Part shown: positions 29,522 to 48,823 of the stretch, in pieces | Numbering within the stretch: the first letter of the stretch is position 1 | Layout: every line of letters begins with the position of its first letter | Assembly (NCBI GenBank): GCA_041394265.1 | Contig: JAWKIO010000005.1 | Location: 925,976 to 989,975, forward strand | From: Acidimicrobiales bacterium | Lineage (GTDB): Bacteria; Actinomycetota; Acidimicrobiia; Acidimicrobiales; SZUA-35 | Reading direction: 5' to 3' | Length of the DNA stretch: 64,000 bases | Translations under genes and position numbers: made by a program | Notes under the pieces: model-generated | What the model was told of the DNA's origin: nothing | Seen by the model: the letters and a program-made list of their open reading frames with translations, nothing else | Database searches by the model: none

Positions 29522-30442
29522 GTGTCGAACGCTCCAACGCCCGCACCCGCCGACTATCTCGAGGCAACCCGATCGCTCTACGACAGCCTCGGCTACACGC
29601 CCTACCGCTGGGCCGAACGAACCGAGCCGGTGCCACTCGTGGCGCCGGCTCGATCGCTGTCGGACAGCCGAGTGCTGCTCATCGGATCCGGCGGGATCTA
29701 TCGCCACGGCCAAGTGGCCTTTGCCACCAAGGACGACACCTCCATCCGCACCATTGCCAGCGAGACGGCGGCCAGCGAACTGCGGACAGCGCATTTCGCC
29801 TACGACCAGACCGATGCCAGAGAAGATCCGAATTGTGTCTTCCCCCTCGGCCGGCTGCGTGAGCTCGCCGCCGAGGGTGTGATCGGCGGCATGACCGACC
29901 ATGCCGCGGCCTTCATGGGCGGCATCTACTCGGTCCGCCGGTTCGAGGCCGAGACCGTGCCCTCGCTGATCTCGCTCTGCGAGCAGGAAGAGCCCGACGT
30001 CGTCCTCCTCGTACCCGTCTGACCGGTCTGCCATCAGTCGGTCGGTCTGGCCGCACGCAGCATCGAAGCCGCCGGCTTCACCACCGTCACCCTCACGTCT
30101 GCCCTGTCCATCACCGAACGGGTCATGCCGCCTCGGTCGCTGTTCGTCGACGCACCACTGGGCCATACCGCCGGCCCCAAGCACGAGCCCGAGGTCGGGC
30201 GTGGGATCGTCGAGATGGCGCTCGGTCTGGTCGAACTCGACCTCCCGTCTGGTTCGATCGTCGACTCGGGTTACCGCTGGCCGAACGACGACTGGCGCGC
30301 CGACCCGCTGAGCTGGTCACGCAAACGAGAGGACGCCGGCGACGCGCCATCCGACCGTCCGAGCGGCGATACTCGCACCGAGCGCAGCGACGAGCCGCAG
30401 TATCAGAACAAGGCCGACCGACTGGCCGCCGAAGCAAGCTGA
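29522..30442 (+). CDS. GrdB/PrdB-family (glycine/sarcosine/betaine/D-proline reductase B-like) protein with in-frame TGA at 30020-30022: candidate selenoprotein, U167
   Basis: Track ORFs 29522-30022 and 30125-30442 are in the same frame (difference 603 = 3x201). Reading through the TGA gives ...PDVVLLVPV-U-PVCHQSVGLAARSIEAAGFTTVTLTSALSITERVMPPRSLFVDAPLGHTAG... with no further stop. The layout resembles GrdB around its Sec: beta strand, U-x-x-C, helix, E-x-x-G, PLG. A paralog at 47597-48823 has TGA at the same alignment position. Confidence 0.65.
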
Positions 30443-30490: not shown

Positions 30491-30535
30491 CCAGCTCGGT
30501 TATCGTGAGTAGCAAGTTCACTTCTGGAGGTCATC

Positions 30536-31018
30536 GTGTCCGAATCCATCACCATCGACATCGGCATCAGCGAGGACGACCGCAAGGCGATTGCCGACGG
30601 CCTGTCCCGTCTCCTCGCCGACAGCTACACGCTCTACCTGAAGACCCACAACTATCACTGGAACGTGGTGGGCCCGATGTTCAACACGCTCCACCTCATG
30701 TTCGAGACCCATTACAACGAACTCGCCCTCGCGGTCGACCTCATCGCCGAGCGCATCCGCTCGCTGGGGGAGCCGGCACCCGGGACCTACCGCGAGTTCG
30801 CCGCCCTGTCCACGATCGACGAAGACACCGATCAACCCGACGCCACCGAGATGATCAGGCGGCTGGTGAAGGGCCACGAGGCAGTCGCCCGAACCGCACG
30901 CAGCGTCTACCCGATCGTCGAGAAGGCGAGCGACGAGCCGACGGCCGACCTCCTCACCCAGCGTCTACAGGTGCACGAGAAGACGGCATGGATGCTCCGC
31001 AGCATGCTCGAAGGCTGA
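30536..31018 (+). CDS. dps: DNA starvation/stationary-phase protection protein Dps (ferritin-like)
   Basis: 160 aa. [38 protein letters not shown] is the classic Dps ferroxidase-site region. GGAGG RBS 5 nt upstream of the GTG. Confidence 0.9.
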
Positions 31019-31050
31019 CAGTCACGACCCGACGGGCGTAGCCTCGGGGC

Positions 31051-36182: not shown

Positions 36183-36977
36183 ATGACGCTCGATCCCGCC
36201 CTGACCGCTGCGCTCGACGATCTGGCGACCGCGCCCTCGCTCCTCGTCGCGTCGGACTTCGACGGCGTGATCGCACCGATCGTCGCCGACCCCGCCGCCG
36301 TGCAGGCTCGGCCGGGCTCACTCGAGGCGCTGGCCGCCCTCGGTTCGCTCGACAACACCGAGGTCGCGCTGGTCTCCGGGCGATCGCTCGACTTCCTTCA
36401 GAACATCCCCGGCGCACCCAGCGGTGTGTGGCTCGCCGGCAGCCACGGTGCCGAACTGGGTCATCGTCCGCCGGCGGCGTTGGAGCCGAAGCAACAACAC
36501 TTGCTCGATCTGGTCACCAGCGATCTTCGTACGCTCGCCAACTCGACCGACGGAGCGAGCGTCGAGGAAAAGAGTGGCAGCGTGGCGTTCCACTATCGCA
36601 ACGTCGACCCATCGCTGACGTCGTCGTTGCGCTCGACGGTGCTCGACGGCCCGGGAGCGTTGGCCGGCATCGAGACGAAGTTCGGGAAGATGGTCATCGA
36701 ACTGGCCGTGTTCACGGCGAACAAGGGGCACGCCATCGGGGCGATCCGCCACGACAGCGGTGTCGAGCGGGTGATGTATCTCGGCGACGACGTGACCGAC
36801 GAGGATGCGTTCGAGATCCTCGTCGAAGGCGATGTCGGCATCAAGGTCGGCGAAGGGGCGACCGCCGCGCCGTGGCGGGTGGCCGATCCCGACGAGGTGA
36901 CAATGGTGCTCGAGTATCTCCTCGACGCCCGACGCCGCCACTGGGTCCTGAACACCGGGTTGCCTACCGGCACCTGA
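36183..36977 (+). CDS. otsB: trehalose-phosphatase
   Basis: 264 aa. HAD motif I LLVASDFDGVIAPIV, motif SGRS, KGHAIGAI and GDDVTDEDAF, typical of OtsB. Confidence 0.85.
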   Translation: MTLDPALTAALDDLATAPSLLVASDFDGVIAPIVADPAAVQARPGSLEALAALGSLDNTEVALVSGRSLDFLQNIPGAPSGVWLAGSHGAELGHRPPAALEPKQQHLLDLVTSDLRTLANSTDGASVEEKSGSVAFHYRNVDPSLTSSLRSTVLDGPGALAGIETKFGKMVIELAVFTANKGHAIGAIRHDSGVERVMYLGDDVTDEDAFEILVEGDVGIKVGEGATAAPWRVADPDEVTMVLEYLLDARRRHWVLNTGLPTGT

Positions 36978-46774: not shown

Positions 46775-47551
46775 TCAGGTAGTGGCGCTCGAGCGGTCGA
46801 TCACCATGAACGCCGCTCCCCACGGATCGACCAGCGAGACGGACCGCCCAAAGGGTGTGTCCATCGGCGGCATCGTCACGGACCCTCCCCGGCTCGCCGT
46901 CAGTTCTGCTGCTGCGTCGGCGTCGGGCACCGAGAACGACACGCCCCAGTGAGAAGGAACGGCCGCGGGCACCTCATCGCCCATGGCCATCAACCCGGCA
47001 ATCGGCTGACCGCCGAGCTCGGCGACTCGGTAGTCCATCGGCCCATCCATCGCCGTGAACGACCAGCCGAACAGCGACCGGTAGAACGCCTCGGAAGCGT
47101 CGGCGTTGCGAGTCCGACAGTCGAACCAACACGGAGCGCCCGGTTCATCCAGCACTCTGATGCCGTTGTCGGCCGACCCTTCGAAGATCCCGAGTGCCGC
47201 GTTGGCCGGGTCGAGCACGATGGCAATCCGCTGCCCGTCGGCGTTGATCACGAACGGCGGCTGCGCCACCATGCCGCCGGCACCGGTGACGGCAGCTGCG
47301 GTGGCGTCGGCGTCATCGACGGCGACATAGACCGTCCACACCGGCGGCATTCCCGCCATCTCGGGCGTGATCTGCATCGCGCCGGCAACCGGCTGGTCAC
47401 CGCTCATGAACATTCGGTAGGGCGAACCTTCGACCTCGAACACCGACCATCCCATCAGGTCGCCGTAGAAGGAGGTGGCACCTTCGATGTCAGACGCGGC
47501 GAGATCGGTCCAACTGATGGTGTGCGTGGGGTGACGGTCGATTCGAGTCAT
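46775..47551 (-). CDS. VOC family protein (two glyoxalase-like domains)
   Basis: From ATG 47551 (MTRIDRHPTHTISWTDLAASD...). Two repeats of the pattern F-Y..L.GW......Y......G..V.G (FYGDLMGWSV..., FYRSLFGWSF...). Confidence 0.8.
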   Translation of the reverse strand: MTRIDRHPTHTISWTDLAASDIEGATSFYGDLMGWSVFEVEGSPYRMFMSGDQPVAGAMQITPEMAGMPPVWTVYVAVDDADATAAAVTGAGGMVAQPPFVINADGQRIAIVLDPANAALGIFEGSADNGIRVLDEPGAPCWFDCRTRNADASEAFYRSLFGWSFTAMDGPMDYRVAELGGQPIAGLMAMGDEVPAAVPSHWGVSFSVPDADAAAELTASRGGSVTMPPMDTPFGRSVSLVDPWGAAFMVIDRSSATT

Positions 47552-47596
47552 GGCGACACCGTAAGCGCGCCAACGACCGTCCCGCCCGACGAGCAA

Positions 47597-48823
47597 TCAA
47601 CGATGGCCAGGGGCCATGTAGAACCACACCGGATGCGGTGCACCCTGTTCCTTGATCGCCGCTCGGGCCGCCATGATGGTCTTGCCCGCCTCGGTCTGTT
47701 CGTAGAACCACGCCTCGGCGGCACGTCCATCGGGCGGCGGGCCGTCAACCAGTTCGAGCGCCGCCTCCTCGTAGTAGGTGCGGATGTCGTGACAGATCGC
47801 GGTGGTGTTGCCGCCCGGGATCCCCGCCTCCTTCCACGCCGCACCGTTGGCGATCGCGTCGAACACCGCAAGCGCTCCGGGAATGCCGTCGGGCTCGACG
47901 ACGCGTCCGACCGAGGTCACCCCGCGCCGGGCTCGAGCCCGGTCGAACGCCTTGCGAAGCCCGTTGGCCTCGTCGACCGAAGCCGGCAGCTTCGGGTCGA
48001 ATCGAGGCGGCAGCGTGCAGGTGAGCGGAATCTCGTCGGCAGTGATGGTGACCGGGTGGTCGACGAGCACGGGTCCCGACGGCTCGGCGAGCAGCGCGAA
48101 CGCACGAGTGAGCACGTCATGCTGGAACTCGCTGTCACTCGGCCGACCGAGTGGCCGACCGAGCGGGAAGTCGCAGTACAAGGCCCGAGGCGGAGCGATG
48201 CGCTCGGCGACCGAGCGGGTCGAGGCCAATACGACGGTGGCGATTCCGGCGGCTTCGAAGACGTGGGCGAGCGTACTCACGGTACGCGTGCAAAGCGGTC
48301 AAACGGGGGTGAGCACCACCACGTCGACACCGTCGGCGGCCAGCTCGCCCGCCGCTCGCGGCCCCGAGTCGAGGCGGATGGTCGAGACGTCGTCGGGCTG
48401 GTTGCCGGCGAACGAGGCGTGACGGGGTGCGACGGCGCCGATGATCCCCTGCGCCGCAAGCTCGTCGAGGCGATCGATCGGGTAGACGACATTGAGGTCG
48501 ATGGCCACGCCGGTGCGGTCGAAGTTCGGACTCCAATGACCGAGCACGAGGTCGCGTGCATCGGACGGGAGCAAGCGATAGCTGGTGTCACCAGCCGCGA
48601 AGGGGTCATCACTCGTTCGGTGCAACGCCGCGGAGGTGACGATGGCGACGGTCGACTCGCTCAGTGGTTTCGGCTGGACCCACGGCGTGGTGTCGAAGGT
48701 CGGCACCGGCAGTGCGTCGCCAAGGCTCCTCATCTTCGAATCGCCGGTGGCGCTGGACTCGCTGCTGGCTGACATCTCCTCAGCTTGCTGGACGCAAGGA
48801 GTCGAGGCAACTCGTTCGTTCAC
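47597..48823 (-). CDS. GrdB/PrdB-family protein with in-frame TGA at 48301-48299: second candidate selenoprotein (paralog of 29522-30442)
   Basis: Track ORFs 48299-48823 and 47597-48280 share one frame (48301-48280 = 21). Read-through gives ...VDVVVLTPV-U-PLCTRTVSTLAHVFEAAGIATVVLASTRSVAERIAPPRALYCDFPLGRPLGRP... It aligns with the other copy at D-VV-L-PV-U-P-x-C, EAAG, TV-L, ER--PPR-L and PLG. Start uncertain: GTG 48823, ATG 48775 or ATG 48733. Confidence 0.65.

Follow-up and report, generated by a model that had tools for sequence, protein, structure and literature searches.

A probable bacterial SECIS hairpin, conserved as RNA, behind the in-frame UGA of a PrdB-like gene from Acidimicrobiales

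The 'proline reductase PrdB' proteins with a UxxC motif (U, selenocysteine, Sec) constitute a published selenoprotein family which, according to the tables of the two surveys cited here, is one of those best represented in marine metagenomes (PMC1088965 Tables 1-3; PMC2398784 Table 2). Bacterial Sec insertion sequence elements (bSECIS) are described by the model of Zhang and Gladyshev (bSECISearch), which, as summarised in a later paper, comprises an apical loop of 3-9 nucleotides (nt), a stem of 4-16 base pairs (bp), a G as the first or second nucleotide of this loop, usually with G or U after it, a distance of 16-37 nt from the UGA to the loop, and a minimum free energy (MFE) of -7.5 kcal/mol or lower (PMC13188914). 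Here we analyse a hairpin located directly downstream of an in-frame UGA in a 64,000-nt stretch of DNA from an Acidimicrobiales bacterium (assembly GCA_041394265.1, contig JAWKIO010000005.1, positions 925,976 to 989,975 of the forward strand; hereafter the window, whose own numbering is used throughout). Comparison with orthologues suggests that this hairpin (48287-48271, minus strand) is very probably the bSECIS of the mRNA encoding a PrdB-like selenoprotein. The gene, termed gene 2, and the parts of the element, numbered with the U of UGA as nt 1, are as follows:

47597..48733, minus strand: predicted PrdB-like selenoprotein gene (gene 2), a continuous reading frame but for one internal UGA
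48299..48301, minus strand: in-frame UGA, read here as selenocysteine (motif U-P-L-C; TGA in 81/81 orthologues, the window gene included)
48288..48298, minus strand: 11-nt spacer CCGCUUUGCAC, made up of the Pro, Leu and Cys codons and the AC of a Thr codon
48282..48287, minus strand: 5' arm GCGUAC, nt 15-20
48277..48281, minus strand: apical loop CGUGA, nt 21-25, with G22 and U23
48271..48276, minus strand: 3' arm GUACGC, nt 26-31
48267..48291, minus strand: extended element, in which a 2x2 internal loop lies between the main stem and two outer pairs, G48291-C48267 and C48290-G48268

The first-pass annotation of this DNA had read UGA-CCGCUUUGCAC-GCGUAC-CGUGA-GUACGC in the minus-strand RNA, and on re-reading both its coordinates and its letters match exactly. 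The perfect 6-bp stem that it had proposed, with a 5-nt loop containing G-U, is found at 48287-48271 as GCGUAC/GUACGC closing CGUGA, and the stem does begin at nucleotide +12 after the UGA, an 11-nt spacer (48298-48288) lying between the UGA at 48301-48299 and the 5' arm. Compared by hand with the bSECIS model, the hairpin has a loop of 5 nt with G and U at positions 2 and 3, a stem of 6 bp, and a UGA-to-loop distance of 17 nt, composed of the 11-nt spacer and the 6-nt arm. Its energy lies below the limit of the model when calculated in context (-8.2 kcal/mol, or -9.3 kcal/mol with the outer pairs) and above it for the bare 17-mer (-6.8 kcal/mol), so the delimitation of the element decides this point.

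The evidence that carries this reading comes from related genes. A one-genome-per-species scan yielded 80 orthologous loci (L001-L080) from Acidimicrobiales/Ilumatobacteraceae metagenome-assembled genomes (MAGs), with 68-89% amino-acid identity, which together with window gene 2 form a set of 81 sequences aligning over residues 1-378; all 81 carry TGA at the Sec codon and no further in-frame stop. RNAalifold applied to this set returns exactly the six pairs of the hairpin, which bears out the expectation that a genuine element should be kept and should covary in orthologues, and adds two pairs beyond the 2x2 internal loop; these outer pairs are also given by RNAfold on the window sequence. The first of them (alignment columns 17-41) is GC in 81/81 sequences, and the second (columns 18-40) is CG in 60, UG in 19 and broken in 2. 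All six pairs of the main stem are standard in 81/81 sequences, and among the 73 distinct sequences 99.7% of the cells are paired in the hairpin register, compared with 1-72% in slid registers.

Two of the six pairs vary among the orthologues. Pair 4 (nt18-28, columns 24-34 of the alignment) is C-G in 53 and U-A in 20 of the 73 distinct sequences and broken in none (61 and 20 among all 81), and pair 3 (nt17-29, columns 23-35) is G.U in 52 and G-C in 21 (60 and 21 among all 81). The switch at pair 4 couples a synonymous Arg codon (CGU/CGC) with the amino acid encoded four codons later: Thr ACG occurs with CGU, Val GUG with CGC, and Ala GCG, found in one genome (L076), also with CGC, the mismatched combinations being absent (0/81). 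On an approximate neighbour-joining tree built without the hairpin region, parsimony needs at least four changes of the pair-4 state, and therefore the association between the Arg codon and Thr, Val or Ala arose more than once. The loop is CGUGA in 74 sequences, CGUGU in five, CGUGG in one and CAUGA in one, which gives G22 in 80/81 and U23 in 81/81 gene 2 orthologues.

The arms found in the window form a perfect palindrome at the DNA level as well, and such an inverted repeat might be bound by a dimeric protein or belong to an element of the opposite strand. The stem of the majority of orthologues (60/81) contains a G.U pair, which is not palindromic in DNA and becomes a C.A mismatch on the antisense strand; this points to a sense-strand RNA hairpin rather than a DNA palindrome. 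Moreover, two paralogues that differ in sequence (see below) both have the element inside the coding sequence, equally far from a recoded UGA, and we consider a DNA-level function extremely unlikely. As judged from the alignment, the hairpin is conserved as a sense-strand RNA structure.

The first-pass annotation had cautioned that a short palindrome found by eye could be coincidental. By this account, the palindrome would have arisen by chance in GC-rich coding sequence and been kept only through the conserved peptide TRTVS(T/V)L. When the window sequence is considered by itself, the hairpin indeed stands out only weakly against chance: 6-bp Watson-Crick hairpins resembling the bSECIS model occur within the allowed distance at approximately 1.6% of window positions and after 1.75% of TGA triplets, although the exact geometry of the gene 2 hairpin is found at only 0.07% of positions. 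The hairpin is the MFE structure in folds of 40-47 nt and is replaced by other pairings in folds of 71 and 76 nt, and its energy is no different from that of shuffled sequences; single-sequence folding energy is uninformative in a sequence of 67% GC. The peptide, too, is conserved in homologues with Cys in place of Sec, as a coincidence maintained by the protein would predict.

The distribution of synonymous variation points in the opposite direction. Among 323 codon columns of the 81-sequence codon alignment with a degenerate, conserved amino acid, only five have zero synonymous entropy, namely codons +4, +6, +7, +8 and +9, all inside the hairpin. The lowest six-codon window has a mean entropy of 0.13 bits compared with the gene mean of 1.32 bits, a value reached in 0/20,000 permutations, and at third positions the entropy falls to 0.23 bits across codons +4 to +10, as opposed to approximately 1.4 bits elsewhere. 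As a control, we examined the DNA of eight homologues without the UGA, a small sample in which this position is Cys in five (TGT/TGC), Gly in two (GGA, GGG) and Ala in one (GCT). The peptide that they encode is similar (T/S/P-R-T, after which the residues vary), its codons differ among them, and their stems are broken, with 2-5 of the 6 in-register pairs remaining. The contrast is stark, although the sample is small, and it suggests that the nucleotide constraint is specific to UGA-containing genes. Since the stem is kept in 81/81 orthologues with a compensatory pair change, and since synonymous variation collapses precisely there, the hairpin is more than chance. The exchange of Thr, Val or Ala tied to a synonymous Arg change, with pairing preserved in 81/81, is likewise at odds with a palindrome maintained by the peptide, which we regard as highly unlikely. 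The caution about coincidence is contradicted by the synonymous constraint, the compensatory changes at pair 4, the non-UGA homologues and the stem of the paralogue.

A different explanation arises from the way in which these genes have been annotated. The public annotation of gene 2 comprises only the C-terminal 227 amino acids (47597-48280, minus strand; R2733_04680, 'hypothetical protein', 100% identical), starting from GTG at 48280, and dozens of orthologues with 72-89% identity are present in protein databases, all as the same 227-amino-acid fragment. The gene could accordingly be split, with an N-terminal open reading frame (ORF) of 174 amino acids ending at the UGA, a separate 227-amino-acid protein starting at GUG 48280, and the conserved nucleotides serving as a re-initiation signal. 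GUG is present at this position in 80/81 sequences, and the exception, L037, has AUG, which is likewise a start codon. However, all six codons that separate the UGA from the GUG are kept as amino acids, and they include the second Cys of UxxC, which aligns with the CPxC motif of unsplit homologues. Codons +1 to +3 (Pro, Leu, Cys) have entropies of 0.11/0.00/1.36 bits at positions 1/2/3, the variation being only synonymous, and they must be translated in the gene 2 frame because their amino acids are kept while the third positions vary freely. The GUG at 48280 is not preceded by a purine-rich ribosome-binding site, and re-initiation would leave both the compensatory stem changes and the different-sequence stem of the paralogue unexplained. 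We rule out the split gene, as very improbable, because the codons between the UGA and GUG 48280 are under protein-level selection.

The entropy profile of the whole gene is in agreement with read-through, the means at codon positions 1/2/3 over the 81 sequences being 0.49/0.35/1.36 bits before the UGA and 0.56/0.36/1.43 bits after it. As far as the alignments allow us to judge, translation clearly runs in frame past the UGA. In the window, TGA is the usual stop codon and ends 42/50 long ORFs with high GC content at third codon positions (GC3), and gene 2 likewise ends in TGA; therefore, there is no genome-wide reassignment of UGA, and the internal UGA needs a local mark. A crude GC3 filter for further recoded UGAs in the window returned the two PrdB-like genes and one implausible candidate. 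The latter, a third in-frame TGA at 36320 (minus strand) between two ORF segments, was rejected, its local translation, TEGGQRLE*ARPSLHGG, being unlike that of a real gene.

The second PrdB-like gene of the window, gene 1, lies approximately 18 kb from gene 2 and has its UGA at 30020-30022, within ...LLVPV-U-PVC.... The region 3' of this UGA, proposed earlier as a comparison, contains a stem of different sequence at the same nucleotides:

29522..30442, plus strand: predicted PrdB-like selenoprotein gene (gene 1), assigned from its translation and family matches, start codon uncertain
30035..30049, plus strand: candidate SECIS hairpin of gene 1, CAGUC-GGUCG-GUCUG, nt 16-30, in the same register as that of gene 2

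A metagenome scan with gene 1 yielded 80 relatives (L081-L160) from soil, sediment and marine samples, with 48-82% identity, all with TGA (80/80) within LLVPV-U-PVCHQSVGL; 65 of them were aligned together with the window gene. In this family, the stem CAGUC/GACUG (nt 16-30) is paired in 96% of cells, compared with 20-37% in slid controls, and in most members lengthens to 8 bp closing a GUG triloop, and the codons CAG (+5) and CUG (+9) are used without synonymous exchange in 66/66 sequences. The gene 1 and gene 2 families align without gaps, and RNAalifold on the combined alignment (147 sequences) returns the same columns. Paired cells amount to 95.8%, compared with 77.5 +/- 1.4% in shuffles and 20-51% in slid registers, and the loop has G22 in 143/147 and U23 in 147/147 sequences across both families. 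Double (compensatory) changes occur at 4/8 pairs, three of them only between the paralogue families:

nt15-31: G-C/U-A
nt17-29: G-C or G.U/A-U
nt18-28: C-G or U-A/G-C
nt19-27: A-U/U-A

Aligned in this way, the paralogues show the same predicted structure formed from a different sequence at the same place.

The nucleotides adjoining the UGA are also worth recording. The Val codon directly 5' of it (48302-48304, minus strand) is GUU in 75/81 orthologues despite the high GC content. The same Val position in the paralogue family is GUU, GUC or GUG, and the base 3' of the UGA is always C. The GUU before and the C after the UGA may exert a context effect on recoding.

Several observations weigh against assigning the hairpin as a bSECIS. 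Apart from the alternative pairings in the longer folds of 71 and 76 nt, z-scores relative to dinucleotide shuffles range from -0.06 to +0.48, indicating no extra stability, and the stem pair probability is only 0.16 within a 140-nt context. Within the gene 2 family, double changes are confined to one pair and reflect few independent events (at least four, on an approximate tree), and the pair changes between the paralogues represent one deep split, thus again few events. The gene 1 family by itself yields no significant covariation for either the 5-bp or the 8-bp same-register stem (66 sequences) and a weak RNAalifold consensus of -2.0 kcal/mol. The subgroup to which window gene 1 belongs has a U.U mismatch in the same-register stem, and an alternative register is available there, CGGUC-GGUCU-GGCCG at 30039-30053; as a family-wide structure, the register CGGUC/GRYCG was tried and rejected, with only 78.5% of its cells paired. 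One gene 2 orthologue, L037, has the loop CAUGA, with no G in the first two loop positions. The AUG that replaces GUG in this loop lies in L037:3427-3486, in a record labelled Bifidobacterium breve, apparently a mislabelled MAG, and CAUGA may reflect a variant that is tolerated, a fault of the assembly or decay of the gene. Finally, neither the 64-kb window nor the flanks of the fetched loci yielded tRNA-Sec, selA, selB or selD in motif scans and Rfam. For the window as a whole, Rfam had no match at its gathering threshold, and around the site it had none at E values up to 10; the blank at the hairpin is expected for a bacterial SECIS.

These gaps leave space for another interpretation of the same structure, namely a conserved RNA hairpin that aids UGA read-through or pausing without SelB, for example through near-cognate Cys/Trp suppression or through an effect on mRNA stability or regulation. 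What the alignments bear on is a conserved RNA structure beside a decoded UGA rather than SelB binding or selenium incorporation, and sel genes are missing from the window and the fetched flanks. To our knowledge, bacteria have no established programmed UGA read-through of this type that is independent of SelB, which counts against this interpretation. In addition, the UGA is aligned with the redox Cys in a known UxxC selenoprotein family (PMC2398784), and the hairpin shares G22/U23, its loop size and its 11-nt spacing with SelB-dependent bSECIS elements (PMC13188914). Related genera have Sec machinery and many selenoproteins: Ilumatobacter coccineus and I. nonamiensis possess SelD, SelA and SelB and have 15 and 10 selenoproteins, respectively (PMC5029168 Tables S1, S2), and in Actinomarinales, which belong to the class Acidimicrobiia, a 2026 preprint reports selA/B/C/D from all genomes that it examined (bioRxiv 10.64898/2026.04.03.716425). 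Many of the orthologous loci are assigned to the family of Ilumatobacter. Read-through independent of SelB appears improbable to us; by analogy with these relatives, the source genome presumably encodes selA, selB, selC and selD, and we infer that SelB would bind at the gene 2 UGA and that Sec would be incorporated there.

If the hairpin acts as a bSECIS, recoding could proceed as follows. As the ribosome nears the UGA at 48301-48299, the 6-bp stem and the 5-nt loop would form 11 nt downstream, with the loop offering G22 and U23. SelB carrying Sec-tRNA(Sec) and GTP would bind the hairpin and be held at the ribosomal A site, and the UGA would be decoded as Sec rather than as a stop. The predicted product is a full-length protein of approximately 378 amino acids with a U-P-L-C selenenylsulfide redox motif.

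Translation of gene 2 may start at the ATG at 48733 (MRSLG...) or upstream, as far as the GTG at 48823, and reads ...VVVLTPV-U-PLCTRTVSTLAHVFEAAG... around the UGA. Both genes pass the gathering cut-off of Pfam PF07355 GRDB (22 bits), gene 2 with 25.4 bits and gene 1 with 35.7 bits. The match to NCBIfam TIGR04483 PrdB is stronger (gene 2, E 4.6e-38 and 131 bits; gene 1, E approximately 1e-38 and 130 bits), but misses the equivalog cut-off of 300, and both genes also match NCBIfam TIGR01918 below its cut-off. The earlier label 'GrdB-like' is broadly correct; the best family match is PrdB-like, under the equivalog cut-off. Because the PrdB score is sub-threshold and the protein carries roughly 140 extra C-terminal residues, its product should, on these matches, be named PrdB-like and not D-proline reductase.

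Protein searches recovered full-length homologues of 382-400 amino acids with 50-57% identity. The UGA aligns with the first Cys of CPxC in six of them (P0008, P0020, P0033, P0057, P0084, P0087), and Gly or Ala stands opposite the UGA in two full-length homologues; where the homologue has Cys, the corresponding codon is TGT or TGC. A sequence search of solved structures found no relative. At the DNA level, Gly or Ala in place of Sec/Cys at the start of UxxC is encoded in L161 (GGA), L168 (GGG) and L162 (GCT), full-length homologues with approximately 55% identity, and the GGA codon of L161 is one substitution away from TGA. Such homologues would be without the presumed catalytic residue.

Five ORFs flanking gene 2 were scanned, encoding a two-domain VOC/glyoxalase protein, an MFS transporter, a nitroreductase, an O-methyltransferase and an SDR protein. 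Neither PrdA nor other prd genes are found among these five ORFs, to which the PrdA scan of the window was confined. The VOC gene adjoins gene 2:

46775-47596, minus strand: two-domain VOC/glyoxalase gene, beginning directly after the gene 2 stop

As a conserved operon partner of gene 2 this VOC gene was rejected, since it is absent from 80/80 orthologous loci. None of the four neighbours compared over these loci is conserved, and those other than VOC recur in only three, so there is no conserved operon. In L002 and L006, an MFS transporter gene follows directly after the PrdB-like gene, and in the non-Sec homologues L162 and L164 a glyoxalase-family gene lies just upstream instead. Downstream of gene 1, the ORF at 30536-31018 (plus strand) encodes a protein that by eye appears Dps/ferritin-like; a Pfam query with the overlapping ORF 30505-31041, which is in another frame than 30536-31018, gave no match.

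The element is of a known kind and lies in a selenoprotein family known since 2005, and our knowledge of the mechanism of Sec insertion is unchanged. Its value lies in the correction of annotation and in a clean example of an RNA signal within a coding region that constrains not only synonymous sites but also the choice of an amino acid. The annotation error is widespread, and the 227-amino-acid 'hypothetical proteins' cut at the UGA should read as selenoproteins of approximately 380 amino acids. A broader reading, which we regard as possible and put forward tentatively, would take the PrdB-like proteins of Acidimicrobiales for stand-alone U-P-x-C selenol/thiol oxidoreductases rather than proline reductase subunits, with two Sec paralogues per genome, and would assume a SelB recognition rule of the lineage in the form of a pentaloop N-G-U-N-R at nt 21-25. 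If true, this rule would be strict enough to dictate Thr, Val or Ala nine residues after Sec. Two paralogous SECIS elements with identical geometry could also seed a covariance model, of which Rfam has none, for selenoprotein discovery in Acidimicrobiia.

Among the known systems, the closest to the protein are the PrdB families. The marine-metagenome family (Sargasso Sea and Global Ocean Sampling, GOS) resembles the present proteins in its PF07355 match, its UxxC motif and the predominance of Sec over Cys forms in environmental data; in contrast, the Acidimicrobiales subfamily, its C-terminal extension of approximately 150 amino acids and the SECIS covariation do not figure in the tables of the two reports on it (PMC1088965; PMC2398784). 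Clostridial D-proline reductase PrdB (TIGR04483) is homologous over approximately 200 residues, the Sec region included (E 4.6e-38), but the gene 2 protein is approximately 140 amino acids longer at the C-terminus and scores 131 bits against a cut-off of 300, and the hosts are Acidimicrobiales and not Stickland-fermenting clostridia.

The closest RNA element is the E. coli fdhF SECIS, the sequence of which, as compared here, is 100% identical in the best fdhF matches listed and reaches an identity of 99% or more in 5,413 of the 5,420 matching E. coli records. Like the gene 2 hairpin, it is part of the coding sequence and immediately follows the Sec UGA, behind an 11-nt spacer, with a 6-bp stem and a small apical loop exposing adjacent G and U. 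The first-pass annotation had expected both a spacing of approximately 11 nt, as in E. coli, and G/U in the apical loop, and on both counts the two elements agree: the fdhF upper hairpin and the gene 2 hairpin each span nt 15-31, with G23/U24 and G22/U23, respectively. They differ in that fdhF has the tetraloop GGUC (nt 22-25) and gene 2 the pentaloop CGUGA (nt 21-25), in the bulged U17 of fdhF, which has no counterpart in gene 2, and in their unrelated stem sequences. Furthermore, a long lower helix encloses the UGA in fdhF, whereas only two outer pairs beyond the 2x2 internal loop are predicted for gene 2.

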